Part shown: positions 24,407-56,953 of the stretch, piece after piece
How the letters are laid out: the number at the start of each line of letters is the position of its first letter
Position numbering within the stretch: the stretch's first letter is position 1
Virus record (IMG/VR): IMGVR_UViG_3300033147_000418
Location: 2,193 to 66,192 of that record
Length of the DNA stretch: 64,000 nucleotides
Origin: a virus
Taxonomy: Duplodnaviria > Caudoviricetes
Direction: 5' to 3' (one strand)
Notes under the pieces: generated by a model
Database searches by the model: none
Told to the model about the DNA's origin: nothing
Seen by the model: the letters and a program-made list of their open reading frames with translations, nothing else
Program-made: the position numbers and the translations under genes

Positions 24407-24435
24407 AAGGTATAAGCTATCAGAAATCAGGTCAA
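24407..24435 (-). promoter_or_regulatory. sigma70-like promoter for the head operon
   Basis: TTGACC-N17-TACCTT. Confidence 0.6.
24409..24425 (+). promoter_or_regulatory. putative phage promoter GGYATAAG-N6-G
   Basis: GGTATAAGctatcaGAA upstream of the + island gene at 24466. Confidence 0.5.
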
Positions 24436-24465
24436 GCAAGCGAAAAGACAGACAAAGGAGAACCG

Positions 24466-25140
24466 ATGAAATTTTGCCCCCATTGCGGCGGAGAGATCTC
24501 CAAGTACATGGAAGCCGAAGGCCGGAGTTCGGCTTCCAGCGTCGCAACGATCCAGGCGCCGGCGCGAGAATATAGCCAAGACGATATCTGGAGACGGCTT
24601 GTGTCTCGGGCCAGGGAGGTTCAGGCGTCTCCGCCGAGGTCGGATGAACTCGTTTTGGCGGCGGTGCAGCGCCTTGGAGCGGTGCACAAATTCCCTCTAT
24701 CGACGATCGTCCATGTTGCTTTTGATCGGAACATCGTTCCGACCGGCGGCGTGCTCTATCGAGCCACGATGCTGGAAGGCCGAACCCAGACATCGCCCGA
24801 GCAGCTCGAGGCGATGGGGTACGCGGTCAAGGACGGCGCTGTTCTCACGGTAGCGGATGTTCCTGTTGGCCAGGCATACAGCGCAGTCGACTACTGGGGC
24901 GGAGCGAGACAGCACAAGCGGTGGCATCTTGCTGAGCCGGTGAGCATCGAACCGAGTCGGAACGGGGATCCGTTCTTCATGGACGAGAATATGCTCGCCT
25001 TTGGAGCAAGATGGCGAGACCTCGAGCGCGTGGAGGAAGGGCTGCTTGGCCTGTTCGAGATGTTCACGGGCGGCATACAAGGCAAGGGTGCAGGCTCGCC
25101 CATCGCGATTCCGCTGGCGCTCGAGCTGGTCGGTCGGTAG
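24466..25140 (+). CDS. hypothetical protein with an N-terminal zinc-ribbon half-site
   Basis: MKFCPHCGG; SD AAGGAG. Confidence 0.7.
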   Translation: MKFCPHCGGEISKYMEAEGRSSASSVATIQAPAREYSQDDIWRRLVSRAREVQASPPRSDELVLAAVQRLGAVHKFPLSTIVHVAFDRNIVPTGGVLYRATMLEGRTQTSPEQLEAMGYAVKDGAVLTVADVPVGQAYSAVDYWGGARQHKRWHLAEPVSIEPSRNGDPFFMDENMLAFGARWRDLERVEEGLLGLFEMFTGGIQGKGAGSPIAIPLALELVGR

Positions 25141-25144
25141 CCGA

Positions 25145-25166
25145 ATCCGGGCATAAGAAGGGTGAA
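25145..25166 (+). promoter_or_regulatory. putative phage promoter (22-bp exact repeat of 56932-56953)
   Basis: ATCCGGGCATAAGAAGGGTGAA. Confidence 0.65.
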
Positions 25167-25181
25167 CGAAAGGAGTTCACA

Positions 25182-25613
25182 ATGATATCGAATCTGAAAG
25201 AGGCTACCGCCTACCTGCTGCGTGCTCGCAAACTTGCGGCCAAAGCCAAAGATCTGGTCATGGACTACCGCGCTACGGAAGCCCCCCTCGTCGCCCTCAT
25301 AATCGAGGAACGCATCGAGTTCAGTCAGAGTGAAGTGGTCGATCTTGAGATCGAACGCCTCATCCTGAACTCGACTGCGCAACTGATCACTGAGGCGCTG
25401 AATGATGCGGAAAGCTCCGCTAAACGCGCGGCCCACGTCTACACCCAGGTCGAGGCTCTGCGCCGCATTGGCACCGACGCCATCGACGAGACTGCAGACG
25501 AGTACGGAAAAGCCATCGACCAGACGATCATGCGCTCCGAGGAAGTTCAGACCCTTTGGAATCTACTGAAGGAGACCCAGCAGAGTATGCTGGAGAAACT
25601 TCCGAGCCTGTGA
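25182..25613 (+). CDS. hypothetical coiled-coil protein
   Basis: ATG after AAAGGAG; helical composition. Confidence 0.7.
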   Translation: MISNLKEATAYLLRARKLAAKAKDLVMDYRATEAPLVALIIEERIEFSQSEVVDLEIERLILNSTAQLITEALNDAESSAKRAAHVYTQVEALRRIGTDAIDETADEYGKAIDQTIMRSEEVQTLWNLLKETQQSMLEKLPSL

Positions 25614-25619
25614 GTGGCC

Positions 25620-25670
25620 GTGGGGGGCGTTTCGGCGCCCCCCACCCATCTCATTGCTCGATTTTTTAGC
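25620..25670 (+). terminator. hairpin terminator with TTTTTTAGC
   Basis: GTGGGGGGCG-TTTCGG-CGCCCCCCAC stem, then TTTTTTAGC 16 nt later. Confidence 0.6.
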
Positions 25671-25682
25671 TCTGTGTAGACT
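25654..25682 (+). promoter_or_regulatory. sigma70-like promoter
   Basis: TTGCTC-N17-TAGACT, 7 nt before ATG 25690. Confidence 0.5.
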
Positions 25683-25689
25683 GGACGGT

Positions 25690-26172
25690 ATGGTCCCCTT
25701 TCTCCGAGGCTTCACCGACGAGCTCGTGAAGATTTCGACCGTCGAAGACAAGCAGCTCAAGAAGCTCTATCGCGACGTGCGCAAAGAGCAGGGCCGGGCG
25801 CCGCGGCGCAAGATGTCTAATCTGCGTGGCAAGGGCCGCAAGGTGAGTCGGGACTATCTGGCTTCGATGATGCTAGGCGCCGCAGCGACTCCTGCGCTGA
25901 CGATCTTGGGTGGCAAGATCTCTCGAGGTCTGCACAACCGGACGATCCGGTCGGCGCTCAAGCGTGCGAAGAGCGCAAAGGACATCAAGGCTCTCCGTCG
26001 CGAGCTCCACACCGGAAAGACCGTGGGGCGAGTCGTGCCGGGCGGGCGTATCCAGCGCCAGCCGATTGCGACACCAGCGGATGTCGCAGGAGACGTTGCC
26101 AAGGGCGCCCTGTACGGCTCGGTGTTGCAGATGATGCGCGATCGCTACGCGGGCTCCGCCGGCGTCAGCTGA
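25690..26172 (+). CDS. basic protein with GFxDELxK leader
   Basis: MVPFLRGFTDELVKIS; Arg/Lys-rich with a hydrophobic segment. Confidence 0.7.
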   Translation: MVPFLRGFTDELVKISTVEDKQLKKLYRDVRKEQGRAPRRKMSNLRGKGRKVSRDYLASMMLGAAATPALTILGGKISRGLHNRTIRSALKRAKSAKDIKALRRELHTGKTVGRVVPGGRIQRQPIATPADVAGDVAKGALYGSVLQMMRDRYAGSAGVS

Positions 26173-26662
26173 GATGGAACTCGGACAGGCCTGGGTGCTT
26201 GTTCGCGACCAGGAGCAGGTCCTGTGGCGTCCATGTCGCCGGTTCAGAGAACTCCTCGAGCCCAGAAGCCAGCAGGAACCGCGCCACCGCTTCTGAGCAG
26301 AAGAGCTTGGTCGGGTTGTCCATGGGGTTGGACATCCGCTTCATGAAGCGACGCAGCAGGAACCCCAGGATGCCGACGTAGTCGTACTCGGAGCCGAGGC
26401 TGTCGGAGAGCTCGCGGAGCGATTCGATCTGGCGCGACTGGTCGACGGTCAGCGTGTAGCGGGCCACGATCTGGTTTCGTGCGCGCCACTTGCTCCAGGG
26501 CGTGAGCATGAATCCTCGCCCCGTTGACTCCATGACGAAAACCTTCCCGAGAGTTTCGTCCCTGAACGTGATGACTGCGTGGCTCACCTTCGAGCGGGTG
26601 AACCAGCGGATCGCTCGAGAGAACCACCCGTCGGTGGTGCTAAAGCAAACGTTGATGGACAT
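26165..26662 (-). CDS. permuted papain-like NlpC/P60 (YiiX/YaeF-like) amidase/peptidase
   Basis: IRWFTRSKVSHA (His before Cys), YDY, LFCSEAVA, TPQDL. Confidence 0.8.
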   Translation of the reverse strand: MSINVCFSTTDGWFSRAIRWFTRSKVSHAVITFRDETLGKVFVMESTGRGFMLTPWSKWRARNQIVARYTLTVDQSRQIESLRELSDSLGSEYDYVGILGFLLRRFMKRMSNPMDNPTKLFCSEAVARFLLASGLEEFSEPATWTPQDLLLVANKHPGLSEFHLS

Positions 26663-26663
26663 G

Positions 26664-26951
26664 TCACGTTCCGATCGCGAGCATCCCGAAGAACGACCCA
26701 GCGAAGGCCATGACTGGATCTGACACCCACCGATTCATCCACGACTCTTTGGTCATCTGCAAGTCGGTGCGAGCATCGAGCCACGTTTCGATGCCCTCCC
26801 AGACGAATGCGAACACGCCAACCATTGTCCAGCGCAGCCACTGCGCCATCCCGAGTTGCTCCATGTTCGCGCCGACCATGAACCAGAACGCCAGATGGAC
26901 TAGCGTCCATGCGTCGAAGAATGCGTCACCGCGTTTGCCGAAGAATCTCAT
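26664..26951 (-). CDS. small membrane protein
   Basis: Three hydrophobic segments; D.W...H, WE..E and ES..N...D pattern. Confidence 0.65.
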   Translation of the reverse strand: MRFFGKRGDAFFDAWTLVHLAFWFMVGANMEQLGMAQWLRWTMVGVFAFVWEGIETWLDARTDLQMTKESWMNRWVSDPVMAFAGSFFGMLAIGT

Positions 26952-27823
26952 TCGTTGGGCTCACTAGAGCAGTAGAAGGAAGCTGTCGCGTACGAACCAG
27001 TAAACGGCACATTGTGCTGCAGACAGACCTGGACCTCCATCCCGTACTCGGAATGAAGCCTGGTTGATCGCACGTAGTCCCAGTCGAAGATGTAGATGTC
27101 TGATGGCAGCCCGCGCCAACTCGCTCCGCCAAGACCGGCAGGATACTTGGGGAACGCCCTTACTCCGTCGTTGAGGAAATCGCGCATCCCCTTGTAGACG
27201 AGCGGGTTCTTCAGTGGAATGAGCGTCCCGGGCGGATACGGGTCTGGCGTGAGGTCGGGCGCGAAAACGTCAACGAACCCACGGGCCTGGAACGTCACGT
27301 TGTCTGTGAGTCCCACATCGGCACTGAACTGCACCTCGACGAAATCGATAAGCAGGTCGGTGCCAGCCGCTGGCTTGATCGTGACTAGACTCGACCCCGC
27401 GTAGTGGTACGTCACCTTCACCACGTCGGACTCACCAAGCACAGACAGGAACGTCACTGTGCCGGCCGAATAGTTGACGGTGTAGTCACCGCCGGAGCCG
27501 ACGTGCGGGTCCTGCTCGGTCTTCGCGACATCGTTGACCGTGACAACGGCTCGATAGCTGTTGTCCGAGGCGTCCACTAGAAAATCTTCCTGCGTAATGA
27601 ACCCGTGATACGTGTCGATGACGTTCACGTTTGCGAGGCTGTACGTGAGCTGGTCGCCGCCATCGGTCGCCGTCTCCTCGACAACGCGAGTTGACTCCTC
27701 GTACCACGTGGTTGGGTTGGTCCAGTCGTGAGAGTAGAGGGTGACCTTTGACGAGTCCGGTTTTTCGACGGCGATACGAGGGCGGCCGTCAGCGGTCTTG
27801 GGAGCGAGGCGCAGGTCAAGCAT
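26948..27823 (-). CDS. putative virion structural protein
   Basis: DYTVNYSAGTVTF motif common in phage tail and baseplate proteins. Confidence 0.6.
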   Translation of the reverse strand: MLDLRLAPKTADGRPRIAVEKPDSSKVTLYSHDWTNPTTWYEESTRVVEETATDGGDQLTYSLANVNVIDTYHGFITQEDFLVDASDNSYRAVVTVNDVAKTEQDPHVGSGGDYTVNYSAGTVTFLSVLGESDVVKVTYHYAGSSLVTIKPAAGTDLLIDFVEVQFSADVGLTDNVTFQARGFVDVFAPDLTPDPYPPGTLIPLKNPLVYKGMRDFLNDGVRAFPKYPAGLGGASWRGLPSDIYIFDWDYVRSTRLHSEYGMEVQVCLQHNVPFTGSYATASFYCSSEPNE

Positions 27824-28817
27824 TCGAGATGTCCTCCACGCCGTAGTGGCAATACGCTCTCAGTTCAGAAATTCCACGGAGATCGTCTCGGACGATAAAT
27901 TCCAGCACGTCGTCATCCGTAACAAGAACGTTGGCTGCGCCAGGCTTGACCATGAACCCGACCAGAAGGCTGTTGTCCGAGAATGCGAACGACTCTTGCG
28001 GGTGGTACTGCCCAAAGAGCTGGGAGTTGTTCTTGGTGATGAACTTCCACAGGACCTCGCCGGTAGAGATCTTCCGGTGCCTCATGATGAGGCCGCTGCT
28101 CAGCCCACCAACGATGTTGGCAAATGCCGAACTCGTCCACCCAGCAGTCGGAGCAGTCACCTGAAGCACGGCCATCGACAGATGGTAGATCGTGTCGGCG
28201 GGGGCCGCGATTTGAAATCTGTACGGACCTGCACCACTCGACGCCACTACCTCGATGTCGTCGAAGTAACAATGCTGGCCTGCCTGGTTGGCGTATCGAA
28301 TACGCAGCTTCTGGGCGCTCCCTGTGAGACCAAAATCGGTCATGGGAACTGAAATCTTCTGCCAGACCCCGAGGTCCATGTTCACTGCGTACTGATCCAG
28401 CCTGACGTTGTTGCCGATGCGCACATCTGAGCTATCCAGCCACCCAAGCTGCAGACGCGACCCAACAGGGAACGCTTGCGGATTCATCCACAGGTCGACC
28501 TGGTCGTAGGTTCCTGCAATGTCGATCATCGATCCATTGTCGAACACCGTGCTGTCGTTTATCGCAGCAACCCCGGTGTCCCATCCGTTGGTACCCGCGT
28601 GCATGGCGCCAGCCGTCTCGGACCCTGTGCCAGACGCGGTCCAGTCGGTGCCCGTATCCCCTGCACCACCACCGTTCCACAGCACTACCGGGGAGCCGGC
28701 AGCTCGCCCGTCGATGTTCATTAGCTCGGAGCCGTTATCGACACGCAGGAACGGGTCACGGCCGAGCGTCCTCTGTGTGATCGCGACAATCGCATTCCCT
28801 TGTGCGTCTCTCGGCAT
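27816..28817 (-). CDS. putative virion protein with a carbohydrate-binding-like beta-sandwich
   Basis: WQKISVPMTDFG...YFDDIEV pattern. Confidence 0.55.
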   Translation of the reverse strand: MPRDAQGNAIVAITQRTLGRDPFLRVDNGSELMNIDGRAAGSPVVLWNGGGAGDTGTDWTASGTGSETAGAMHAGTNGWDTGVAAINDSTVFDNGSMIDIAGTYDQVDLWMNPQAFPVGSRLQLGWLDSSDVRIGNNVRLDQYAVNMDLGVWQKISVPMTDFGLTGSAQKLRIRYANQAGQHCYFDDIEVVASSGAGPYRFQIAAPADTIYHLSMAVLQVTAPTAGWTSSAFANIVGGLSSGLIMRHRKISTGEVLWKFITKNNSQLFGQYHPQESFAFSDNSLLVGFMVKPGAANVLVTDDDVLEFIVRDDLRGISELRAYCHYGVEDISNA

Positions 28818-29920
28818 TAGACCTCGTACCCGCGAATCACGGTGTCGATCTCCTGCGAGGAATTACTCAAGCGAGAACGATAAATCCGAAGAGTTCCTTC
28901 GCCCGCTGTAGGCATCCCAATCATTGCCGTTCCGTCACGGGTCTCAGAGGTGTCCGGGTAGTTGCCGAACTGCGTTTGCCCGACGATGTAGATTCGGTCC
29001 AATAGACGTTCAGTGGTCCCGTCCCAGTAGAAGTACTCGCACTTGGACCCGTCGGCCGATGGATCTCCCTGGCAGCCTGCCACGATCTGCTGTATGTGCA
29101 GCGTCTTCCCGTTCGTGATTTCGTACTCTGTAAGATGGGGCGAGTTCGAGTTGCTAATCGCCAGAGGGGTGTCCGCAGAAACGGTCAGCTTGATACCGCC
29201 CTGGGGCGGAGGAGGGATTTGGACCGTGACTTGCCCCGTGATGGCAAGTCTGTGCAGTCCTGAAATCTGAGCATCTTCGACAGTCATCAGCTGGTGCTGT
29301 GTGGCCGACTCGTCTATGCCTAGTGCACCTACGTCACCGATGTCGTTCGTTCCTGCAGGTAGCGCATCGGTGATCTTCTTGATTCCTGCTGTATCGCGAA
29401 TCGCTGTGAGAATTGTTTCGATGTCTGAGCTGTTCACCAACAGCGCTGCAATGTCCCCTGCCTGCGCCGCCAGGGTCGCTTGGGTCGCGAAATCCTTCCC
29501 GTCAAGTGAGGCGAGGAGGGCACGAACGGCCTCGAGCTTGACCTCGGTCGAGAGAGTCGAGAGCGTGGCCTCCGTCGCGGCGCCAGTCGGGAGTGGGAGG
29601 CTCGCTACACTGACTGGCTGGGTTTCGGCCAAGTCCGCCTTGGTTTGGAGTTCGGCGAGCAGCGCGGCAAGGGTTGTCTGGGTCGCGTAGTCCACCGCTG
29701 CCAGCACACCAGTGTCCACGTCGATTGTGGCGAGGAGGGCGCGGACGGCCTCGAGCTTAACCTCGGTGGCAAGAGTGGCCACGGTGGCTTCTGTTGCCAG
29801 TCCATGCCCTACCTTGAGATCGGCCTCAACCTGCAGGCGATAGACCGCACCATCGAGCACAACACCCACCGGGTTGACGCCCGTGGAATCGTAGATGATT
29901 GCTGCTGGTGACTGCGCCAT
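28817..29920 (-). CDS. putative fibre protein with an internal duplication
   Basis: ATEAT.ATL.TEVKLEAVRALLA...D.ATQ.TLAA occurs twice. Confidence 0.6.
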   Translation of the reverse strand: MAQSPAAIIYDSTGVNPVGVVLDGAVYRLQVEADLKVGHGLATEATVATLATEVKLEAVRALLATIDVDTGVLAAVDYATQTTLAALLAELQTKADLAETQPVSVASLPLPTGAATEATLSTLSTEVKLEAVRALLASLDGKDFATQATLAAQAGDIAALLVNSSDIETILTAIRDTAGIKKITDALPAGTNDIGDVGALGIDESATQHQLMTVEDAQISGLHRLAITGQVTVQIPPPPQGGIKLTVSADTPLAISNSNSPHLTEYEITNGKTLHIQQIVAGCQGDPSADGSKCEYFYWDGTTERLLDRIYIVGQTQFGNYPDTSETRDGTAMIGMPTAGEGTLRIYRSRLSNSSQEIDTVIRGYEV

Positions 29921-30504
29921 TACGCGATCGTCCTAGTACGGGATGACTCGAATGCTCCTACGTACGATATCGCATCTGTGATGGTTGCCAGAACGGTACT
30001 TCCATCGGGGTCGAAAACCTTCCATACCTCTTGGGTAATTTTGGCTCCTGACCACGTTGTATCCAGAGAGACTATTTTCTTGAGCTTCGAAGAAGACTCC
30101 CACCAAATCTCGCTGGTCGGGAAAGGGCCGGTGGGAGCGCTTTCCTTGAAGGCGCCACTGGCGAACCCGCCTCCTGGTCCATCGTTTAGAAAGTGGATCA
30201 GCTGGCGTAGCGTCTTGTGGGACGACTCGGTAAGTCCCGCCGAACCCGCCAGGAGCTCGGTGAGGGTGTGCTCAGCCCCAGTAACGACATCCCGAAAAAG
30301 CATGTCACCCGTGGCCGAGTCACGGGTGACGTAGACGAGCTCATCCTTGCCGGACGAGCCCTGGAAGAAGATGCCGTGAACCTCGGGGGCGTCCTCGTTC
30401 GGGTCGAGGTGGACGGGATAGCCGTCCTCGGCGTCCGCCCCATCGCCCCCACCGGCCACGCTCTCATTCTTGAGAATCTGAACGCGGTCGGTGGGAGCAG
30501 CCAT
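29920..30504 (-). CDS. hypothetical structural protein
   Basis: 194-aa ORF, coupled to the downstream gene. Confidence 0.6.
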   Translation of the reverse strand: MAAPTDRVQILKNESVAGGGDGADAEDGYPVHLDPNEDAPEVHGIFFQGSSGKDELVYVTRDSATGDMLFRDVVTGAEHTLTELLAGSAGLTESSHKTLRQLIHFLNDGPGGGFASGAFKESAPTGPFPTSEIWWESSSKLKKIVSLDTTWSGAKITQEVWKVFDPDGSTVLATITDAISYVGAFESSRTRTIA

Positions 30505-30535
30505 AGAGCTAGGCTATCAGATCGTAGCCGGCTCG

Positions 30536-32314
30536 TTAGTTCACTTTGCCGAGGTACTGCGGCTCGATGTGCAGCTCTTGGCCGACAGTGTTTGCGCACT
30601 TGCCGATCACCATGCGGTGGTTGCCACTGGTGGCCGGAGGGATGACAGTCGTGAGACCGCCAGCGACGGCCAGGTAGACCAGGGCGCCCGCCACCGGCGT
30701 GGTGATGGCTACCGAACTCTGCTTACCTGCAGAGACGACCTCGACAGCAGCCGAAGCTCCTACCGTGGTCTTTGCGATACCGATGTACTTTCGGGTGTTG
30801 TTGTTGTTGGCAAGACACTTCGACACGATCCCGTTTGCCGAGATGTAGACCGGGTCGCCGGCCGTGACACCTGTGCCGTCCGTGGTGTACCCCGTCTCGA
30901 TCCGCTCTGCTTCGGCTGTTCCGGCGTGAACGTGCAGAGATGTTGTCGAGCCATCGGTCAGCTCGGTCAGCTCCGCACCCGTTGCTGCGGTATCGGAGTG
31001 AGATGCGATGGTGTGAGACTCGGCGTGATGCTGATCGCTGGTCACACCCGACAGATCGGTGTGAGCCATCGAGAGGTCACTGGCACTGTGGATATGCAGC
31101 CCGGCCGCATCCGAACCATCAGTGAGAGTGTTCAGCTCGGCACCCGTACCCGACGTATCGGAGTGAGATGCGATGGTGTGAGAGCCGACCGCGCTATGGG
31201 TGTGCAGAGAGTCGGCGTTCGAGACGTCGGTCAACGTGTCCAAGTTGGCTGCGGTGACCGTTGCTCCGGTAGCGGTTGCCCCGATCTTGAACAGATCCGG
31301 GACACCCACGACGTAGAGCCCGGAGGCATCCTTCGCCAACTCGTTCGCGCTCTTGAGGAGCAGGTCGAGCTTGTTCGAGGTGAACTGGAGACCGGGGTTG
31401 GTTGCCAGATCGACCGCAACATCGTTGGCGTTGGCAACGATACCGTCACCGCCCACGACATCGAGGGTGTTGGCGGTCTTGGTGAGGCCGTCGCCGGCGT
31501 TGATGTTACCGGTACCAGTGAACTGGATCCAGGCACCACTGGGGGACGTACCTTCGTACGTGTAACCTTCGTTGTCGTAAACACCGATGTGCCCTGGGTC
31601 CTGGATCAGGACAGCGGCGGAGTCCACGGCGTCGCCTGTGTCAGTGGGCGTGAGGCTCGCTCCACCGAACTCGTGGATCTCATCGTTGTCGGTGGCATCG
31701 GTGTGCGGAGCGATCAGAGTTCCGGTGCCCGACAGGATGACTCGGGTGCCGATGGGCGGGAACCCACCGCTGTTTGTGATCAGGATGATCCAGTCCGTGC
31801 CATCGAACTCCACGATGTCACCGGCCGCAACCGTCGGGTCGGCGCCAGCACCTTCGGTAAGATCGCCTGCATCGGACATGACGTAGGAGTCACCGAGCGT
31901 CCCAGAGAGGGCGTTGATGGTGGCAACGTCATTGGTGCCGAGCATGTTGAGGGTGACGACTCCCTCTTTCCAGCCGAGTCCGGAGACAAGACTGTCGACG
32001 TACGCCTTGGATGCGGCAGCCGTAGCTCCGGTGGGTACGGCCGGTAGGCCTGTGAGCTCACCGCCGCCGGCAACATCGATGTCTCCGCCGGAGGTGATTG
32101 TCAGGTCACCTAGCTCGGCACCAGTCTGCTGGTACCCGATGGCATCGCCATCAGCGCTCGCATCGCCCAGACCGGTGATCTTCTCACCCGCCATCGTAAT
32201 GCCGCCGCCGCCCGCATCCATGGTCAACGAGTTGATCGTGAAGTCGTCGGCGGTGGGATCATTTTCGACCGGAAAACCATCCGTGTCGAACTTGAACATT
32301 TTGATCTGGGCCAT
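30536..32314 (-). CDS. fibre protein with His-rich (HxH) repeats
   Basis: AASKAYVD, AGDGL and GGDGI fibre repeats; repeated LTDGS...H.H; decoration-like C-terminal domain. Confidence 0.7.
   Translation of the reverse strand: MAQIKMFKFDTDGFPVENDPTADDFTINSLTMDAGGGGITMAGEKITGLGDASADGDAIGYQQTGAELGDLTITSGGDIDVAGGGELTGLPAVPTGATAAASKAYVDSLVSGLGWKEGVVTLNMLGTNDVATINALSGTLGDSYVMSDAGDLTEGAGADPTVAAGDIVEFDGTDWIILITNSGGFPPIGTRVILSGTGTLIAPHTDATDNDEIHEFGGASLTPTDTGDAVDSAAVLIQDPGHIGVYDNEGYTYEGTSPSGAWIQFTGTGNINAGDGLTKTANTLDVVGGDGIVANANDVAVDLATNPGLQFTSNKLDLLLKSANELAKDASGLYVVGVPDLFKIGATATGATVTAANLDTLTDVSNADSLHTHSAVGSHTIASHSDTSGTGAELNTLTDGSDAAGLHIHSASDLSMAHTDLSGVTSDQHHAESHTIASHSDTAATGAELTELTDGSTTSLHVHAGTAEAERIETGYTTDGTGVTAGDPVYISANGIVSKCLANNNNTRKYIGIAKTTVGASAAVEVVSAGKQSSVAITTPVAGALVYLAVAGGLTTVIPPATSGNHRMVIGKCANTVGQELHIEPQYLGKVN
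30990..31183. repeat. 29-bp direct repeat pair (30990-31018 and 31155-31183)
   Basis: GTATCGGAGTGAGATGCGATGGTGTGAGA twice, encoding SHTIASHSDT. Confidence 0.85.
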
Positions 32315-32332
32315 GCTGGTGTCTCCTACTGG

Positions 32333-48820: not shown

Positions 48821-48840
48821 CAAGGCACTCACGTTGTTGC

Positions 48841-48857
48841 GGCATAAGCCTAGTGCA
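48841..48857 (+). promoter_or_regulatory. putative phage promoter GGYATAAG-N6-G
   Basis: GGCATAAGcctagtGCA, divergent from the RNAP gene. Confidence 0.5.
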
Positions 48858-48952
48858 GGAGGAGTTATAGGAACTCGTCGACGATCGCGAGTAGCGTTGG
48901 CGTCGGAACGATCGCATCCTTCGGTCTTCCGCTCATCGGTCACGGGCTTACC

Positions 48953-49147
48953 ATGTCCGAGGTTCCCTCGATCGCCCTGGGCGCGGGCAAGAGCGTCTTG
49001 CTCTTCGGGGGCAAGGCACTCCTCTTCCTGGGGGTTGGCGTCGGGATCCTGTACCTCGGACGCTGGGTGCTCAGCGGCATCCTGGACTGGGCCGATAGGG
49101 TCGAGGCGCGCGTGGAGCGTATCCGCCCCCGGGCGGAAGTAGTGTAG
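48953..49147 (+). CDS. small membrane protein
   Basis: ALLFLGVGVGILYLG transmembrane-like segment. Confidence 0.55.
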   Translation: MSEVPSIALGAGKSVLLFGGKALLFLGVGVGILYLGRWVLSGILDWADRVEARVERIRPRAEVV

Positions 49148-49148
49148 C

Positions 49149-49610
49149 GTGATTACCGCCGCGCACCTCTGGTACAGGTACGGAATTGGACCCCAGAAGA
49201 ACGACAAGAAGCCGTCGTTCTTCGGGTTCGCTCGCGTTGCTGGTGTTGCCGCGGTAGTCGTTCCCGCCCATGGATACGTGATTGGCAGTCGAGGCGCTGT
49301 GTCGCTCGGTCTCCAATCGATCAGGGGCCCCCTATGGAAGATCGTGAACAAGTTCTTCGGCGCGGTGGCGTGGATGTTTGCCATCTCGGCCGGGCTTTGG
49401 CTTGTGCAACACTTCACCGAACGGTGGACTGGTGCCGGGTATCCGATGATCTTCCCAAGCGTCGCCACGATCGCCGGTCAGCAAGCAGGGAACACGCAAC
49501 CAGGTAACAGAAGGGACGGTATCCCGAACGGTCTCGGAGCCGGCTCTGCACATAGGAGGACGCAAAGTAACGACTCGGACCTGTCGGACATCTTCTTCTC
49601 CGGTCGCTAG
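49149..49610 (+). CDS. putative membrane protein
   Basis: Two hydrophobic segments; convergent with 49607. Confidence 0.55.
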   Translation: MITAAHLWYRYGIGPQKNDKKPSFFGFARVAGVAAVVVPAHGYVIGSRGAVSLGLQSIRGPLWKIVNKFFGAVAWMFAISAGLWLVQHFTERWTGAGYPMIFPSVATIAGQQAGNTQPGNRRDGIPNGLGAGSAHRRTQSNDSDLSDIFFSGR

Positions 49611-50065
49611 TCAAGTAGGGGACGAACAAGGAACCCGGCGAGTACAGCAGTAGACACTGCAGCAAGGGACCAAGCCACGGGAGATCCCCACCGTGGCTTG
49701 ACCCTTTCGTCTTGGTACTTCTTGTCTAGGTCGATCAGGTCCTTGGTGAGCTTGTCAGTCTGCGCGACCAGGGCCTTTTGGCTTGAGGCGTACACCTCGA
49801 GCTGCCCACTCACCAAATCGACCTGGAGCGCCAGGATTGCTGAGCGAGCGAGTTCTTTTTTTAGCTTCGACTTGGTGACCACGAACTCGGCGTCGACAAC
49901 GAGAACACCCTTCCATTCGTCGAGCGTGTAGCCGCAGATCTCCCCGGAACCAACGGTCTTGTAGACCGTGCACTTCGGGATGATCTTCGCTTCGTACTTG
50001 GGCTCAGCGAACGCCGGCGTCGCGCCAAGAACCAATGCTATCGATAGCGCGCAGATCAGCTTCAT
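49607..50065 (-). CDS. exported coiled-coil protein with a C-terminal anchor (spanin-like)
   Basis: Signal peptide MKLICALSIALVLGATPAFA, coiled coil, C-terminal TM; overlaps the upstream gene. Confidence 0.5.
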   Translation of the reverse strand: MKLICALSIALVLGATPAFAEPKYEAKIIPKCTVYKTVGSGEICGYTLDEWKGVLVVDAEFVVTKSKLKKELARSAILALQVDLVSGQLEVYASSQKALVAQTDKLTKDLIDLDKKYQDERVKPRWGSPVAWSLAAVSTAVLAGFLVRPLLD

Positions 50066-50447
50066 AGCGACCCTCCTCGGCACGTTCGTCAGCAGCGATG
50101 ACCCGAAGCGCTTCGCGGGCGGCCGCGAAGGCGCGGTCCGCAGCTGCGATTTTCTCGTCACCGTCGGCGAGCATTTGAATGGTCTTAGCATTGGCCGCGA
50201 GAATCCTGGCCTTGTTCTTTTCGTGGCGAAGCCTGGCGAGCTCTCGGACGTGGCGTCTGTTGAACCATGACCAAGCAGCAAAGCCGGCAAGCACCACCGC
50301 GATGATCACGATGGTGCTCAGCCAGGACTTGCCGACGCCGCCGGGGGACGTGTTGTTGGAAACGATACCCTTGAGCTTGCTCAGCAGGTCGCTGGGATCA
50401 AACGACGGTTTCTTGACGCCGTTTGGGTCTTTGTCCCCATCTGGCAT
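50004..50447 (-). CDS. membrane-anchored coiled-coil protein (i-spanin-like)
   Basis: TM IVIIAVVLAGFAAW followed by a coiled coil. Confidence 0.5.
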   Translation of the reverse strand: MPDGDKDPNGVKKPSFDPSDLLSKLKGIVSNNTSPGGVGKSWLSTIVIIAVVLAGFAAWSWFNRRHVRELARLRHEKNKARILAANAKTIQMLADGDEKIAAADRAFAAAREALRVIAADERAEEGRYEADLRAIDSIGSWRDAGVR

Positions 50448-50450
50448 TGG

Positions 50451-50969
50451 CTAGATGGGGGTGACCGGCCTGCCAGTCTGATCGCGAGAACCTTCGTCCA
50501 TGCGGAGCTCGAACAAGTGGGCCTCGATGAGCCCCTCGAGCTTCTCGCGCGCGAGCTCAGGGAGCTTCTGCGCCTTCGCCATCTCGATAGCCCAGTTCGC
50601 GGAGACCTCCATGACCTCGTTGCCAGGGATCTTCTTGCCCTCGGCCAAAGCCTTCGTCTTCTTGCGAGCCCATTCGCCGCCGCGCAAAGCCGCCTTGCGG
50701 GCGAGGTTCGACCAAGCAGTAGCGGTCTTCTCGCCGACGTCGACGCCGAACTTCTTCTGCACCTTGTGCAGGAGCCAGGTCGCCAAGCCGCCAATGAACG
50801 CGACGAAGACGGGGACCAAGATGTTCATGATCTCGGCCGACAGGTTGTCGAGCGAGGTCTTTGCCGCCTGCGCGAACGCGATGCTCGGAATGAAGAAAAT
50901 GACCAGTGCGATTGCGCTAGCTACCAGAAGATACGCTCTGCAGATCGCGCTGTTTTTGCTCGTCCTCAT
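50451..50969 (-). CDS. holin-like membrane protein
   Basis: Two hydrophobic segments followed by a basic helical domain. Confidence 0.45.
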   Translation of the reverse strand: MRTSKNSAICRAYLLVASAIALVIFFIPSIAFAQAAKTSLDNLSAEIMNILVPVFVAFIGGLATWLLHKVQKKFGVDVGEKTATAWSNLARKAALRGGEWARKKTKALAEGKKIPGNEVMEVSANWAIEMAKAQKLPELAREKLEGLIEAHLFELRMDEGSRDQTGRPVTPI

Positions 50970-51261
50970 CGGATTCTCCTTTGGTGCGTTTGGGGGGTTT
51001 CTCCCAGTAATGTACCACCAGGTACACGTCTTCCTGGGTGGTCACGATCCCTTCGGGGCCACCCTCTCTAATCACCGTCTTGCGGGTGTACTCGCGGATT
51101 TGCTCGATATTGATTCCGCTCGAAGCGTTGTTCGCGTTGGTGCGAAGGTCGCCGTAGGTGACCATGTCCTCTGGTTCGAACATGTTGAACGACTTGCACC
51201 TGAATTCGCCCATGCTCTTGGCCGAATCTGCGAACTTGACCTCGGTTGCTTTGGCGGCCAT
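50917..51261 (-). CDS. hypothetical protein
   Basis: Coupled to the portal stop; 114 aa. Confidence 0.6.
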   Translation of the reverse strand: MAAKATEVKFADSAKSMGEFRCKSFNMFEPEDMVTYGDLRTNANNASSGINIEQIREYTRKTVIREGGPEGIVTTQEDVYLVVHYWEKPPKRTKGESDEDEQKQRDLQSVSSGS

Positions 51262-53321
51262 CAGACGCTCCCGTCCTTGCGCCGCGGCGGCGCCTTCTGA
51301 GGCAAAGGCTTCATCCGGTCGGAGACGGCCGCTGCGGTTTCGCCAGGCCGCATCTGACCGAGCAGTTGTTCCACGATCCGAGCCATGTTCGGCATGCGGC
51401 GTCTCAGGTCATCCAGGACAGCGACGCGCTGAGCTGACTCCATCTTGGAGATTTTGTTCGCCCACTGCTTGGCGATACGAGCGGCATCCATCTCGACGAC
51501 TTGCCCGCCCCCAGACTGCTCACCGGCCTGTCCTGCCACCTGCGCCGGCATCTCAGCTGCTTGGCCTTGAGCTGCCTGGGTGGCCATCTGGCTGTCGTCG
51601 GCTACAGCGCCGCCCGAGGGCGGCGGCGCCGCTCCTGGCTGCTGTGGGGCTGCCTGCCCCGGCGGCTGTTGACCAGCCTGGCCCGGCGCACCCTCCTGGG
51701 GCGGCGGCGCTCCTGGCTGCTGTGGAGCGCCACCTTCGCCGGACACCTGCCCCTGGGCCTGCTCGGCCTGTGCCGGCTGGCCGCCAGAGATCGCACCCTG
51801 CGCCTCATTGAACGCCTCTTGCGCGCGCGCCTGGTACTTGGCCTGAACAATCTGCGATTCGCCCTGAGCCTCGGCCTGAGCCTTCATTGTGATGGCCTGG
51901 ATCCGGTTGCGCGACTCGGCTTCCTTCTCGATCATCTCCTGCTCGTCGTCGTAGTCGAAACCGAGCTCGGTGAGCATTGTGTGATCGGAAATCTTGTTGG
52001 CGGCGTTCAGCTGGATGACGATCTGCTTGCGCTGGATGTCGTCCGCCATCTTGAACTCGGTGAAGCCGATGTCGACATCGGGCATCCCGAGATAGAGGCG
52101 CAGGCGATTCTTCGCCCAGTTGACGAAGCGAAGCAGAAGTCGCCGGTACATGAGGAAGTGGTTCTCGAGGGTGCGAAGAGACACGCTCGAGCCAGACCAG
52201 GAGAGCCCGCCGAAGACGAACTCGATGGGCACGCCCATCCCGCCCGTGATCTCCTTGTTCGTGACCTCGATCTCGGGCCCGAGCAGAAGCGCGCGACCGT
52301 CGCCGCCGAGGCGCTCGAAACCGAGCGGAACCGAGACCACGGAGATGTAGTTCGGGTCGACCCGCCACTTGCGGATCTCGGTCTGCACCGTGCCTTGCCA
52401 GCTCGAGAGGTTGACGTGCTGGTAGGGGTCCTGCTGGCCGTTGGCCTGCGGGAAGATGAACTCGAGCGGCATGATCCGCTGCAGCGCGATCGCTTCCTGC
52501 GCGCGCCGGAGCACGTACAGGTAGAACATCCGCCCCATCGAGTGAATGATGAGCGGCTTGCCCCAACCCATGTCTTGCTCGGCGAGTGTGGGGCGCTTGA
52601 AGTGGAAGAGGTTCTGATCGCTGAGCGCGATAGACCGCTTCTTCCGGAGCGCCTCAAAGAAGATCGCCGGGATGTCTACGATGATCTCCCGGGTGCCGTC
52701 CTGGATAGCCTTGCGGATCTTGTTGGGGATCTTGTAGCGGTACTTGGACCGCCCCGTGATCGGGTTGTAGTGGATGTCGATGTTCTTCGGATCCCATCGA
52801 ACGAAGTTGATGCCTGTCCGGTCGCGCACAGGCACATCCACGATTTCGCCGATCACGTTACTGCCGCAGCCTGGGCACGCGATGCTGAACTGGAAATTCT
52901 TGAACGAGAACTTGAACTCGGGGTCTGCCAGCTTGTGCATGGACTTGCAGACAGGGCAGCGAATCCATCGAATGAACGGCAGGTTCAGCGAGATGAACGC
53001 GTTGCCGTAGCAGAAATAGTCGAGCCCGATCTCGATCAGGAACGGCTTGAAGTTGAGGGTGTCCTCGAGCAGCTCGCGCCATGCCTCGCGGACGTGCTTC
53101 TCTTGGGCGTTGTAGACGAAATCCGTGACCGGGTACTCGGCGACCTTGGTCACCACGGCCCCGATCATCGGGTCCTTGTAGAAGAAGTACTGGCACCACC
53201 GGAAGAGCTCCTTCACGGTGGGCGGCATGTAGGTTTGCGCGATGTCGAAGAACGGTGACGGATACACCGTCCCGCGACGTCGGTCGACCTGCGACAGCCC
53301 TATCGATTGGTCATCAGCCAT
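51261..53321 (-). CDS. portal protein
   Basis: DYFCYGNAFI, RWDPKNI, GWGKPLI, ITGGMGVPIEFVFGG; Zn-ribbon insert; Q/P/A-rich tail. Confidence 0.85.
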   Translation of the reverse strand: MADDQSIGLSQVDRRRGTVYPSPFFDIAQTYMPPTVKELFRWCQYFFYKDPMIGAVVTKVAEYPVTDFVYNAQEKHVREAWRELLEDTLNFKPFLIEIGLDYFCYGNAFISLNLPFIRWIRCPVCKSMHKLADPEFKFSFKNFQFSIACPGCGSNVIGEIVDVPVRDRTGINFVRWDPKNIDIHYNPITGRSKYRYKIPNKIRKAIQDGTREIIVDIPAIFFEALRKKRSIALSDQNLFHFKRPTLAEQDMGWGKPLIIHSMGRMFYLYVLRRAQEAIALQRIMPLEFIFPQANGQQDPYQHVNLSSWQGTVQTEIRKWRVDPNYISVVSVPLGFERLGGDGRALLLGPEIEVTNKEITGGMGVPIEFVFGGLSWSGSSVSLRTLENHFLMYRRLLLRFVNWAKNRLRLYLGMPDVDIGFTEFKMADDIQRKQIVIQLNAANKISDHTMLTELGFDYDDEQEMIEKEAESRNRIQAITMKAQAEAQGESQIVQAKYQARAQEAFNEAQGAISGGQPAQAEQAQGQVSGEGGAPQQPGAPPPQEGAPGQAGQQPPGQAAPQQPGAAPPPSGGAVADDSQMATQAAQGQAAEMPAQVAGQAGEQSGGGQVVEMDAARIAKQWANKISKMESAQRVAVLDDLRRRMPNMARIVEQLLGQMRPGETAAAVSDRMKPLPQKAPPRRKDGSV

Positions 53322-53335
53322 GGTTCAAGGTCGCG

Positions 53336-54544
53336 CTAGTCGCCGAAGGCGACTTTGCCACCGATGTATGCGGTGAGACCAGCCTGAACCTTCTCGCCGG
53401 TGGTGAGCGAGTTCACGCCCTGGCTCATGATCTTGTCGACGATCCCCTTTGGCGCGCCAGCGTTCTGCGCTGTTTCCGCTGCGGCGGTCGGGCTGGGGGC
53501 CGGCTTGGGAGCGGCCTGCGGAGCAGGCCCATCCGTTCCAGTACCCTTCCTAATCGGTACGACGTTGTCCGGCTGCTTCGTGGCCTTTGCTGCGTCGTCC
53601 ACGGCGCGCGTGCGCCCCGATTCGGACTTGATCGCCTTGGCCTCGGTGGTCGCGGCCACGGTGGCCGCCGGCGTTTTGGGTGGGGCGGTTGTTGCCGGCG
53701 CCGCCGGCGGCTTCGGTGTCGCGCGCCTGTTCGCTTTACTCAGCAGCTTTTTCTGCTTGCCAGAAAGGTTTGCACCAGCGCGCTCCATCTTCTTCAGACC
53801 AGCGACCTGCGCAGCGTGGCCGCTTTGATGGGTCTTGATCAAGCTTTGCTTGTAAGCCCTCCCAAGTGCCCCTTTCGCCTTGACCTTGCCGAGAGCTCTC
53901 CCGGCCATCCTGGCCTTGCTAGCCCCCATCGTCGCCTTGATGTGGCCCATCCCCCCGGAAATCCCTCTCCTGGTTTGGCTGAGGCCACTCTTCGCACCTC
54001 TCGCCAAGGCTTTGGCGCCCGCCCCAACGGCCGCTCCGGCCGCCCGCGTATGCATGAGCCCCTTGCTAAGCAATCCGATGATCGCCTGCTTTTCGAGTTC
54101 CGCATCGGCGGCGAGCTCGAACCCGATTTTTGAAAACTCGGCCTCGAGCCAAGGCTTCAGGTCGTCGGGGCACTCAGCGCCCAGTTGGGCCAGCGAAGCT
54201 TCGATGTCGGTGGAGATTGCCTCGGCGGCGACCTTGTCGAACAGCTCCCCGAACTCATCCGGGCTGAGGTCGCAATTCGTGAGCAGCACGTCGATGTACG
54301 CGTTCGCCCTCTTGCACATTCCGAAACTGGTTCCGCAAGCCCCTGCGATCTTCAGGATGACTATGTCACGATCGAGTCTCGCCGCGACTTTCTCGAAGCT
54401 GGTCTTCGGCGCGGCAGCGGTCTTCTCGATAGGCGCAGGGTCCGCGGCGGTCACTCCGTGGATACGCTCAGCAGCTTCGCAGGCAGCCTTCGTGAAGAAG
54501 TCGCCCGCCGGCTCATCGAGTAGGTATGAGAAATGGTCACTCAT
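53336..54544 (-). CDS. putative internal virion protein (K-x-A family)
   Basis: Start MSDHFSYLL after GGAGG; acidic N-part with KAA, KTA, KVA, KIA, KVA, KQA; basic Ala/Gly-rich C-part. Confidence 0.7.
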   Translation of the reverse strand: MSDHFSYLLDEPAGDFFTKAACEAAERIHGVTAADPAPIEKTAAAPKTSFEKVAARLDRDIVILKIAGACGTSFGMCKRANAYIDVLLTNCDLSPDEFGELFDKVAAEAISTDIEASLAQLGAECPDDLKPWLEAEFSKIGFELAADAELEKQAIIGLLSKGLMHTRAAGAAVGAGAKALARGAKSGLSQTRRGISGGMGHIKATMGASKARMAGRALGKVKAKGALGRAYKQSLIKTHQSGHAAQVAGLKKMERAGANLSGKQKKLLSKANRRATPKPPAAPATTAPPKTPAATVAATTEAKAIKSESGRTRAVDDAAKATKQPDNVVPIRKGTGTDGPAPQAAPKPAPSPTAAAETAQNAGAPKGIVDKIMSQGVNSLTTGEKVQAGLTAYIGGKVAFGD

Positions 54545-54546
54545 GC

Positions 54547-54735
54547 TCAGCCTCCGTTGGCCCACCAGGGCCCGCGACCGCTACCGGCGGCCGGATCGTA
54601 ACCGGACTTGGCGACATCGTCGCGCGCACTTCTCACGCTATTGGCAAGCCGGTCCAAGTACTCTTTCCGAAAATCGGACAACAACCGTGCAATCTCTCGC
54701 GCTGCCAGGGTTTTCTCCTGCTCAGTCTCACTCAT
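54547..54735 (-). CDS. small hypothetical protein
   Basis: MSETEQEK..., ATGA-coupled to the upstream gene; fills the gap. Confidence 0.55.
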   Translation of the reverse strand: MSETEQEKTLAAREIARLLSDFRKEYLDRLANSVRSARDDVAKSGYDPAAGSGRGPWWANGG

Positions 54736-55706
54736 GATGGCACAGCCGCGCTTGTGGTTGTAGACCCTACGTCGATGCCCAAGGGCGCGCCGCGGAGCGC
54801 CTCTTGCCGGTTGAGGTAGTCCTGGACAGCGAACAGCTTCACGATGTGCACGTCGACCGGGTTGTCCTTGCGCCACTCGATCTCGACCGGGTCGTGCTCG
54901 CGTACCTGCAGCCACGTCGCCTCAACATCGCTGCGTAGCCCTACGGTCCAATCCTTCCGGTCCAGTAGCGCTTGGGCGCCCGCGAAGTACTCCTCCGGCG
55001 CATAGACGAACCCGTACTCCTCGAGTATGGCTGCGATGTACGCGTTGATCTCGTTCTCGAACGCCTCGCTCTCCCGTACCCCGCGGAGGATCTGCACGGT
55101 GAAGGCTGCCTGCGACGGCGTCATCGGCTGATAGGCCCCGAATATTGGGGCGACCCCGTTCCAGGCAAGCCCGGCATTCTCGAACACGTCCCAGTCGAGC
55201 CAGAGAGTATCCGTCAGGGCTGCGACGCGGAGAGCCCCGATCTTGTCGCGCGCGAGCTTGCCGACGGGACCAAAGTCCCTCCGCAGCGCCCACCACAGCG
55301 TGGGCGGCTCCCAGGACGCCCACTGCTCCTTGTAGCGAAGGTTGAGGGTGTCGAAAATCTCCAGCGGGTGCGATCGCTTGTCAGAAAAGAGCACCCCATG
55401 CGTCAGCCTCGAGGGGAGCTCTGGCTCTGGCGTCGGCTCCTCCCCGGGCGCGAGCTCGGGCTCGGCATCTGCAGTTGGGACCTCCGTGGCCTCCTCGGGC
55501 CCGGCAGCCTCGGGGGCTGTCTCTGGCTCGCTGGCGCCATCGGCGGCCTGGGCCTCGAGCTGCTTCAGGACCGTCGGCGACACGCTCTCGACGCCGAGAG
55601 CGCTGGCGGTGTCCGGATCGAGCTCAGCAACCTTCTCTACCGGGGCATCCGAGATGATGGCCCCGAAGAAGGCTTGTTCGACCTCGTCGGGTGTATGTCG
55701 CCCCAC
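54732..55706 (-). CDS. hypothetical head-region protein
   Basis: GTG 2 nt after the upstream stop; EKVA, an acidic Pro-rich linker, and a Trp-rich globular domain. Confidence 0.6.
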   Translation of the reverse strand: MGRHTPDEVEQAFFGAIISDAPVEKVAELDPDTASALGVESVSPTVLKQLEAQAADGASEPETAPEAAGPEEATEVPTADAEPELAPGEEPTPEPELPSRLTHGVLFSDKRSHPLEIFDTLNLRYKEQWASWEPPTLWWALRRDFGPVGKLARDKIGALRVAALTDTLWLDWDVFENAGLAWNGVAPIFGAYQPMTPSQAAFTVQILRGVRESEAFENEINAYIAAILEEYGFVYAPEEYFAGAQALLDRKDWTVGLRSDVEATWLQVREHDPVEIEWRKDNPVDVHIVKLFAVQDYLNRQEALRGAPLGIDVGSTTTSAAVPS

Positions 55707-55708
55707 CG

Positions 55709-56851
55709 CTAGGCCTCGCCGGAGATGACCTGCTTGATGAGGACCTTCTCGGGCGTCGGCAGCGATTCGAATACTTCGGATGGATGCTCGGAGAACTGGC
55801 GAGCGAACGACTCGCCGAGGTAGCCGGCGATCTTCTTGATGGTTGCCGGTTTGCGAAGGTCTTCGTCGGTGATCGTCCGTCCGTCGATGTCGGCAGACCA
55901 GCCGTCGGCTTTCTTGCTCATCGAGCTCGCAAACGGGTCCGTCAGCCCACGGTCGTAGTACCGCGTGAGACCGGTGGCCTGGTCGAAGGTCTGGAGCGCA
56001 GACGCCATGTCCTCCGGGTCCGTCTCTTCGAGCGCTGCAGCCAGCTTGTTGAGCACGGCGCAGGCGCCCTCGTTGCGTGGAAGGAGCGACTTGCGCTGCT
56101 CGATGTGGGCGACCACGTGACGGTTCCAGGTACTCGATGCCCACTTGCTGAGCAGCATGTTGTCGGAGACGTCGACGCCGAGCTCGGTTGCCCGGTTTGT
56201 CACCGAGGTTGCAAAGCGATGGCGGTGCTCCGGCGCAAGGTCCATCGCGTACTTGTCGAAGTAGTTCGCTGCCAGCTTGACATGCCCCGCGTCGGGCATC
56301 GCGTACTTGCGGATGACGGTTCCATCGCCGTCACGAGCCACGAGAGCAAAGTGCTCGTTCGGCATGTCGATGAGTGCGTTGATTTCGACAGCGTCGGCTT
56401 GCTTCGTCATGAGCTCGCGCTTGGCCAGCTTTTGCAGCATCCATCGCTGCTCGGAGCCTTCGGTGAAGGTGTTGTGCTGGACGTCGTCAGATGCACGTGC
56501 GGCATAGCCATCGACAAGCGGCGACGTCGGCACACCGTACGCGTCGCACGCCGACTTGATGAACTTCGCTGCGACGAACCTGGCGGGGAATGCCAGTTTC
56601 TCGTGTGTCTGCTGGAAGTACTGCGCGCTTAGCCACGCATTGCCCGGGTCGCAAACAGGGAACTTTCGCAGAACAGAGGCGCGCTTGGTGAGCACAACCA
56701 AGCCAAAGTCTGTGTCTGGCATCTGCTCGATCTGCTCGGGTGTCAGCACGGTAACGTGCGTGTCCCCGAGGGAGTCGGGCATCGCGACTTTGCTCATGAG
56801 CTCGTGAGAGCTGTCGTCGTAAAAATCGAGAACCGCGGCCGAAATCGTCAT
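55709..56851 (-). CDS. putative head protein (K-x-A family)
   Basis: About 12 K-x-A motifs; internal duplication of a D..F.LV......RK(F/Y)...D......A.YF...L motif. Confidence 0.7.
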   Translation of the reverse strand: MTISAAVLDFYDDSSHELMSKVAMPDSLGDTHVTVLTPEQIEQMPDTDFGLVVLTKRASVLRKFPVCDPGNAWLSAQYFQQTHEKLAFPARFVAAKFIKSACDAYGVPTSPLVDGYAARASDDVQHNTFTEGSEQRWMLQKLAKRELMTKQADAVEINALIDMPNEHFALVARDGDGTVIRKYAMPDAGHVKLAANYFDKYAMDLAPEHRHRFATSVTNRATELGVDVSDNMLLSKWASSTWNRHVVAHIEQRKSLLPRNEGACAVLNKLAAALEETDPEDMASALQTFDQATGLTRYYDRGLTDPFASSMSKKADGWSADIDGRTITDEDLRKPATIKKIAGYLGESFARQFSEHPSEVFESLPTPEKVLIKQVISGEA

Positions 56852-56880
56852 ATGAGACTTCCCCCTGGGGCTACTTCAGG

Positions 56881-56909
56881 ACGGTATCACCTGCTCCAAA
56901 CAGGGTCAA
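56881..56909 (-). promoter_or_regulatory. sigma70-like promoter for the portal operon
   Basis: TTGACC-N17-TACCGT. Confidence 0.6.
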
Positions 56910-56931
56910 TATTGGCCAAACCACCCACCCT

Positions 56932-56953
56932 ATCCGGGCATAAGAAGGGTGAA
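56932..56953 (+). promoter_or_regulatory. putative phage promoter (22-bp exact repeat of 25145-25166)
   Basis: ATCCGGGCATAAGAAGGGTGAA. Confidence 0.65.

Follow-up and report, generated by a model that had tools for sequence, protein, structure and literature searches.

What reads the octamer that stands before the plus strand genes of a phage encoding a bacterial-type RNA polymerase of its own? The question is raised by a 64,000-nucleotide (nt) stretch of DNA, hereafter the window, which spans positions 2193-66192 of one virus record, 66,192 bp long (IMGVR_UViG_3300033147_000418; G000). The motif GGYATAAG is found there repeatedly upstream of plus strand genes, and a fused beta-beta' multisubunit-type RNA polymerase of 2085 amino acids (aa) is encoded by the minus strand (42563-48820; Pfam Rpb2_6 1e-53, Rpb1_2 2.8e-25, Rpb1_5 5.2e-25). 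The motif very probably has promoter function. Recognition through a specificity encoded by the phage is likely, and the fused polymerase is, with somewhat less assurance, the favoured reader. The chances are about even that the sites, called class I, are -10-type core promoters, read probably by the fused polymerase together with a divergent phage sigma factor. These readings are drawn from sequence comparison and, for the divergent sigma, also from a complex model. Positions are those of the window unless given as genome positions.

GGYATAAG occurs five times in the window, at 24409, 25150, 40019, 48841 and 56937, always on the plus strand; all five sites and their flanks had been correctly quoted in the preliminary description of this DNA. 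In 100 dinucleotide-preserving shuffles of the window the motif appeared on the two strands 0.83 times on average and 4 times at most, and five or more copies were reached in 0/100. A sixth copy, at genome position 1345 (+), is in the record but outside the window. Genes were modelled with a simple codon-usage caller and corrected by hand, and the models, which are approximate, cover a fraction of 0.94 of the contig. All six copies are intergenic, are followed after six bases by a G, and precede a plus strand gene, the distance from motif end to start codon being 18, 49, 24, 44, 104 and 93 nt. The placement of the five window copies between genes and upstream of plus strand genes, ssb included, had been noticed earlier, with gene distances of 25-105 nt; 24-104 nt were measured. 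Position 3 is C rather than T in 5/6 copies. The copies at 25150 and 56937, about 32 kb apart, do share 22 identical bp, namely atccgGGCATAAGaagggtgaa. One-mismatch variants number 15 in the contig, and 12 of them fall within gene models. No further site is apparent among these 15, except possibly GGCACAAG at window position -1412. This one-base variant, found once in the contig, at the end of the first gene (genome position 781), may be a weaker form of the signal.

The contig is collinear with 27-89 kb of a larger relative (G001) and with 40-101 kb of another (G002). The six sites have positional counterparts in both, while the surrounding intergenic sequence has diverged. Variants found at orthologous sites are GGCACAAG (twice) and GGTATAGG (once). 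The copy at 24409-24416 (+), GGTATAAG, has its predicted start at G 24423 and stands 49 nt before ATG 24466, at the head of the first plus strand island (24466-26172). This includes a zinc-ribbon protein gene (24466-25140) and genes 25182-25613 and 25690-26172; the first and the third have homologues in G001 and G002. Four bp of the motif are shared with the -10 of a divergent promoter of a second type (class II, described below), the two forming back-to-back overlapping promoters. The T in place of C at position 3, seen likewise in the G001 orthologue, is attributed to these 4 common bp. A second copy, GGCATAAG, lies inside the same island (25150-25157, +; predicted start G 25164; 24 nt to ATG 25182), and has orthologues in G001 (55523) and G002 (69057). 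The same octamer is found at 40019-40026 (+) ahead of ssb, with predicted start at G 40033 and 44 nt to ATG 40071, and this site is orthologous in L001, G001 and G002. The second island (40071-41414, +) is made of ssb (40071-40505; Pfam SSB 1.2e-38; PHROG 44 3.5e-55) and genes 40521-40952 and 40962-41414. The copy at 48841-48848 (+) is 21 nt from the start codon of the divergent polymerase gene; its predicted start is G 48855, and ATG 48953 follows at 104 nt. The equivalent position is occupied in polymerase loci L001, L003, L004, L006, L009, L011, L014 and L018. The third island (48953-49610, +) encodes two small membrane-type proteins. Gene 48953-49147 has a G+C content at third codon positions (GC3) of 0.88, and homologues of gene 49149-49610 in L001-L003 are equally divergent from the polymerase gene. 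The last copy, at 56937-56944 (+), has orthologues in G001 (86420) and G002 (94285), and precedes the fourth island (57038-57340, +), a single gene of 100 aa (predicted start G 56951; 93 nt to ATG 57038). Since 48953-49147 and 49149-49610 are taken as real plus strand genes, the motif precedes all four internal plus strand islands, as the preliminary description had it, and the copy at 25150 is an extra one. An open frame covering the 48841 motif extends to 49468, beyond the polymerase start at 48820. A placement of this motif inside the polymerase gene was considered and rejected; relatives align from polymerase residue 1 at 48820.

A terminator (-29.3 kcal/mol, with five U behind it) stands ahead of the copy at genome position 1345, which begins 1 nt after it; GAGGAGG-N4-ATG follows, 6 nt past the end of the motif. 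Transcription is expected to start within or just after the motif, because the transcript needs the ribosome site and there is no room for a promoter upstream. A -10 element occupying -14 to -7, from which transcription starts at the conserved G, would suit this layout. The ssb island (41418-41454, +; -26.7 kcal/mol, z -2.19) and the fourth island (57349-57380, +; -26.7 kcal/mol, z -4.15) both finish in a hairpin and a U-run, and another such hairpin stands after 25613. A terminator of this kind was sought after 49610, where the third island ends, and none was found. The view that the motif is a promoter is strongly supported by strand bias, orthologous retention, placement between terminator and Shine-Dalgarno sequence, and island terminators. 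Fixed orientation and position upstream of genes would also suit a signal in the 5' RNA, or a site bound by a phage regulator, whether activator or repressor. That the motif is either of these, and not the promoter itself, is very improbable. GGYATAAG is not palindromic, the copy at genome position 1345 is squeezed between terminator and Shine-Dalgarno sequence with nothing else there to act as promoter, and no Rfam family was matched in the window. Nothing specific supports a phage activator. The distance from the start codon varies from 18 to 104 nt, and the motif is therefore not a translation signal.

Genes for related polymerases have been identified in 34 IMG/VR loci, three of them 55-64% identical and most of the rest 25-39%. 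Exact copies of the motif were found in 22/34. In the 29 non-redundant sequences (724 kb) left after dropping the duplicates L015, L022, L023, L024, L028 and L032, the motif was counted 44 times on the opposite strand to the polymerase gene and 5 times on the polymerase strand. Five whole records were also scanned, using the reversed pattern in the same records as control. Forward and reverse copies were 10/0 in G001 (control 2/0), 9/0 in G002 (control 0/0), 9/27 in G003 (control 5/10), 4/25 in G004 (control 5/4) and 16/2 in G005 (control 0/4). The major motif strand is opposite the polymerase gene in all five (10/0, 9/0, 27/9, 25/4, 16/2). Motif-bearing relatives span from 35% to 68% G+C. Of the 10 copies in G001, 9 are intergenic, each with a gene on the same strand 4-129 nt downstream. 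In G003, a complete 189-kb relative with terminal repeats, 21/27 copies are intergenic on the major strand versus 1/9 on the other; ten major-strand copies are found among small genes in the first 19 kb. Intergenic counts from G002 were not used, because the gene caller fails there. The scan of the whole record and of relatives with a fused polymerase, which had been suggested earlier, thus finds the motif mainly intergenic (G001, G003) and mainly on one strand. Close to the polymerase gene, an exact copy within 160 nt upstream of its start, on the opposite strand, is present in 8/28 non-redundant loci, and one-base variants with the same spacing were read by eye in seven more of the 28. Loci L029-L034, with polymerases 25-27% identical, host 0-1 copies each.

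The G beyond the six-base spacer is found in 19/25 high-GC and 12/19 low-GC sites (44 sites in relatives), and usually has T before it and A-A after it. At the last position of the octamer, variants ending in T, A and C are distributed on the two strands as background (14/13, 11/12 and 9/15), versus 44/5 for G. Every counted site has G at the position equivalent to -7, and A at -11 is retained. The G at -14 never varies, and T at -15 is found in 0/6 sites here, in 9/25 high-GC and in 12/19 low-GC sites. TTGAC at -35 spacing accompanies only 1/52 major-strand sites (G000-G003), in agreement with the earlier remark that no TTGACA-like -35 is present. None of the five motif sites was listed by a sigma-70 consensus scan of the window, in which sigma-70-like sites were at chance level. 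Canonical sigma-70 promoters carry T at -7 and TTGACA 16-18 bp upstream, and neither feature characterizes class I. According to a review, the T at -7 is among the two bases on which recognition by sigma-70 chiefly depends (PMC7598289). Judged from the octamer and its surroundings, GGYATAAG is not a canonical sigma-70 promoter. An A-rich/CAC element is found at -19 to -11 in high-GC sites; it overlaps the 5' ends of divergent genes and is missing at 25150, and the sites are not independent. A likeness to sigma-28 promoters was dropped, as ATAA alone aligns.

The -10 geometry and the conserved A at -11 would suit an unusual extended -10 promoter read by the host primary-sigma holoenzyme, the plus strand genes being then host-transcribed early genes. 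In low-GC relatives a T often stands before GG, which makes the sequence TGGTATAAG, and many G003 copies precede small genes at the genome end. In other phages, host-read early promoters cluster before small genes at genome ends. A host-read promoter of this kind is nonetheless unlikely. Every counted site ends in G, the T variant being at background (14/13), T before GG is found in 0/6 copies here, and the five window sites are not listed by the sigma-70 scan. On their other strand, moreover, the same genomes have a separate canonical class, marked by TTGAC and a terminal T.

This second class was defined by the pattern TTGACN-N16-18-TAnnnT, found six times in the contig versus 2.1 expected; five of the six are intergenic and five are on the minus strand. 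TTGACC-17-TACCTT (24407-24435, -) would serve the minus strand operon starting at 24377, and is kept in G001 (54782-54810) and G002 (68300-68328). TTGACC-17-TACCGT (56881-56909, -) would serve the operon starting at 56851 (-), and is kept in G001 (86364-86393). TTGACG-16-TACCAT (13968-13995, -) stands ahead of the capsid gene group, and TTGACC-18-TACCGT (12092-12121, -), kept in G001 and G002, after the major head gene. A plus strand site lies at 4247-4275. The sites have the form TTGAC(C/G)-N16-18-TA(C/G)C(N)T, and most of them are on the strand of the polymerase and structural genes. Eleven intergenic examples were found on the polymerase strand of G003, which has a consensus TTGACC-17-TATAAT about 60 nt before the polymerase gene. 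The final T is present in 4/4, 3/3, 2/3 and 10/19 intergenic polymerase-strand sites of G000, G001, G002 and G003, respectively, and genic matches lack it. Class II sites are predicted canonical promoters, which would serve the polymerase and structural strand.

One polymerase gene was found in each genome searched. In the contig and its relatives it is located between portal and terminase genes, on the structural strand. Polymerase residues 1050-1450 align without large gaps to residues 163-516 of the E. coli beta' subunit, a segment that we take to include the sigma-binding clamp coiled coil. Two kinds of sigma factors are encoded by the relatives. SigA-like proteins of 272-317 aa with regions 1.2, 2, 3 and 4 are encoded by the motif strand in G003, G004 and G005. 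In the G003 one, which has SigA chains among its matches (E 1.6e-51), the segments TYATWWIRQ and TRERVRQI are preserved; canonical class II promoters would therefore be its natural targets. Divergent sigma-family proteins of 243-282 aa, whose best solved relative is a sigma factor (E 5.6e-7), are encoded by the polymerase and structural strand in G002, G003 and G004, that is, in 3/3 genomes where they were found. The G002 gene is located about 9 kb past the point where the contig ends. Sigma genes lie at 75251-76069 (-) and 149820-150551 (+) in G003, at 110286-111128 (-) in G002 and at 155123-155827 (+) in G004. The SigA-like gene adjoins that of DNA polymerase A on the motif strand, and the divergent one is found among structural genes. 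In the contig itself, Pfam and PHROGs scans of the proteins revealed no full sigma factor and only a 158-aa open reading frame (ORF) with a sigma-70 region 4 helix-turn-helix (1395-1871, +; Pfam Sigma70_r4 3e-10). This ORF has a Cys-rich N-terminal part and no region 2, and it ends beyond the start of the following gene (1729). At collinear places of G001 and G002 there are likewise matches to region 4. The product could be a sigma fragment or a region 4 mimic.

The complex of the G002 divergent sigma with residues 1040-1470 of the G002 polymerase was modelled, and scored 0.79 versus 0.42 for the best of three controls; this mark is reached by 58/80 solved complexes and by 2/110 mismatched pairs. 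Model runs agree in at least 37% of contacts, the predicted local distance difference test (pLDDT) value of the partner is at least 66, and contacts involve polymerase residues 1220-1253 and sigma residues 82-98. The model would place region 2 of the divergent sigma on the clamp coiled coil of the polymerase, a result that may reflect likeness only, because sigma-core complexes have been solved. Sigma-70-family genes in relatives and sigma-type promoter geometry would equally be expected if a phage sigma redirected the host core to the motif, as T4 gp55 or SPO1 gp28, and the fused polymerase had another task. Phage sigmas using the host core are the textbook case. Such redirection is quite unlikely here: the phage encodes a core enzyme of its own, in which the clamp coiled coil is preserved, the divergent sigma shares the strand of the fused polymerase in 3/3 genomes, and the motif tracks the polymerase lineage, as seen in the few copies of L029-L034.

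According to the favoured reading, GGYATAAG would be the class I core element, at about -14 to -7, with a predicted start at the G (or A) seven bases after the motif. Class I would drive the plus strand units, that is the left arm and its replication-type genes, ssb, and a number of small genes. The reader would be the fused beta-beta' polymerase carrying the divergent sigma-70-family factor. Such a holoenzyme is a likelier reader than the polymerase alone, because relatives encode sigmas and the motif has -10 geometry. The divergent sigma is assigned to class I because the other sigma looks SigA-like; in this phage, its gene would lie past the right end of the contig. Class II would fit the host primary sigma, or the SigA-like sigma encoded by relatives on the class I strand. 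Class I timing would be early, with transcription possibly by an enzyme delivered in the virion, a mode of delivery that falls somewhat short of probable and for which the place of the polymerase gene, between portal and terminase genes on the structural strand, is the lead. Tentatively, and with more doubt, the parts may be assembled into a self-contained bacterial-type transcription system, made of a fused core and two phage sigmas wired crosswise. The divergent sigma, made under class II with the polymerase, would read class I, possibly as a virion-delivered holoenzyme; the SigA-like sigma, made under class I, would then switch on the class II structural strand.

Several points weigh against the favoured reading. 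The pairing of the divergent sigma with class I is reached by elimination, and the gene was not found on this 66-kb contig or on G001. The promoter before the G003 polymerase gene fits synthesis of the phage enzyme by the host polymerase, which weakens the version in which class I is early and its enzyme virion-delivered; with a host-type promoter there, class I genes would be middle rather than early. In low-GC relatives TGGTATAAG differs by one base from the extended -10 TGnTATAAT, and the host holoenzyme therefore stays a live rival. Exact copies are absent from 12/34 loci. In Vibrio phage D69, whose polymerase is 30% identical, the motif is not enriched (5/9, control 10/5), so it belongs to part of the fused-polymerase phages and not to all. 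The gene models are approximate, and the caller performs poorly on G002 (68% G+C).

The contig is a fragment that lacks a terminal repeat. Its collinear counterpart is the middle part of two larger relatives, themselves incomplete (estimated completeness 51% for G001 and 71% for G002), and it would therefore derive from a larger genome, of about 160-190 kb if completeness estimates for relatives are a guide. The left arm, with replication-type genes, extends to 4779 (+) according to the codon-usage gene model; no DNA polymerase gene was found on the contig, and a tRNA scan was empty. Besides ssb, whose product is of canonical type (144 aa), there is a second SSB-family gene at 1729-2631 (+), encoding 300 aa of which the first 100 match SSB (Pfam 9.9e-10). 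The minus strand blocks, with functional labels from Pfam and PHROG, include tail sheath, major head and protease-like genes (4781-24377), terminase and others (26165-39991), the 2085-aa polymerase (41457-48820), portal and others (49607-56851), and a holin-like gene with a 1366-aa protein (57388 to the window end). Neither the latter protein (59439-63539, -) nor that encoded by 36355-38904 (-; up to 849 aa) is matched in Pfam or PHROG; the second is kept beside the terminase across the family, in 16 loci. A nucleotide search with 22 kb of the window against a phage collection gave no match. The polymerase protein had its best full-length matches in that collection in Vibrio phages, at 30% identity, and no cultured phage with the motif turned up there. 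A look for sequencing runs over 39900-49800 listed none. In Vibrio phage D69 (L059, OZ195729.1) the fused-polymerase region (5881-12932) is annotated as four 'hypothetical protein' genes, and the polymerase is unnamed. For the sister phages D181 and D148, the polymerase match falls on a homing endonuclease. G003 has a gene with a reverse transcriptase domain (171983-176070, -; RVT_1, 3e-20) beside MoxR-type AAA and VWA genes.

Class I has partial counterparts in known systems. Early promoters of phiKZ and AR9 type are described in a review as AT-rich elements of about 10 nt, short and strongly conserved, which lie around -10 ahead of early operons, were found by sequence comparison and are read by virion multisubunit RNA polymerases (PMC7598289). 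The conserved 8-nt core before non-structural units, in phages with beta/beta'-type polymerases, is alike, the -10 centring here resting on the predicted start. Unlike those phages, which have 4-5 polymerase fragments, one fused polymerase of 2085 aa is found here, with one gene per genome. Sigma-type geometry, recognisable sigma-70-family factors in relatives and the presence of canonical -35/-10 promoters alongside also differ; the likeness is one of description. Class I resembles the extended -10 (TGnTATAAT) in position relative to the predicted start, in the common T-A-T-A-A, in the G at -14 and in the lack of a -35. It differs in the final G instead of T, in the second conserved G at -13, in the absence of T at -15 in the contig, and in the C replacing the first T in 5/6 copies. 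The T4 late promoter TATAAATA is read with gp55 by the host core, has no -35 element and precedes late genes. A single extended -10-like AT-rich element and a putative phage sigma-family reader are shared with class I, which precedes instead non-structural genes, in a phage that has its own core enzyme. Phage N4 uses a virion polymerase for early genes and host sigma-70 for late genes, the virion enzyme being single-subunit and acting on hairpin promoters. As in N4, two promoter classes are split by gene class, with the canonical sigma-70-type one before structural genes; the polymerase here is a fused one of multisubunit type. The paper defining RNA polymerase-encoding Caudovirales contains neither 'promoter' nor 'sigma' in its main text, to which the search was confined. 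Text searches of the literature revealed no report of the GGYATAAG motif, and the literal motif matched primers only.

Phage polymerases of cellular type are known mainly from jumbo phages similar to phiKZ and AR9, with promoters and specificity subunits unlike the bacterial ones. This lineage presents a promoter signal kept across 35%-68% G+C, a second canonical class on the other strand, the fused polymerase, and the sigmas found in relatives. Together they give a concrete and testable wiring diagram for an uncultured phage group, with defined templates (e.g. the 40019 and 56937 sites) and point mutations for in vitro work. The group may also yield polymerase, sigma and promoter as one compact set whose specificity differs from that of host sigma-70. 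If the crosswise wiring is true, the final G of the motif would be a new -7 specificity in the sigma-70 family.

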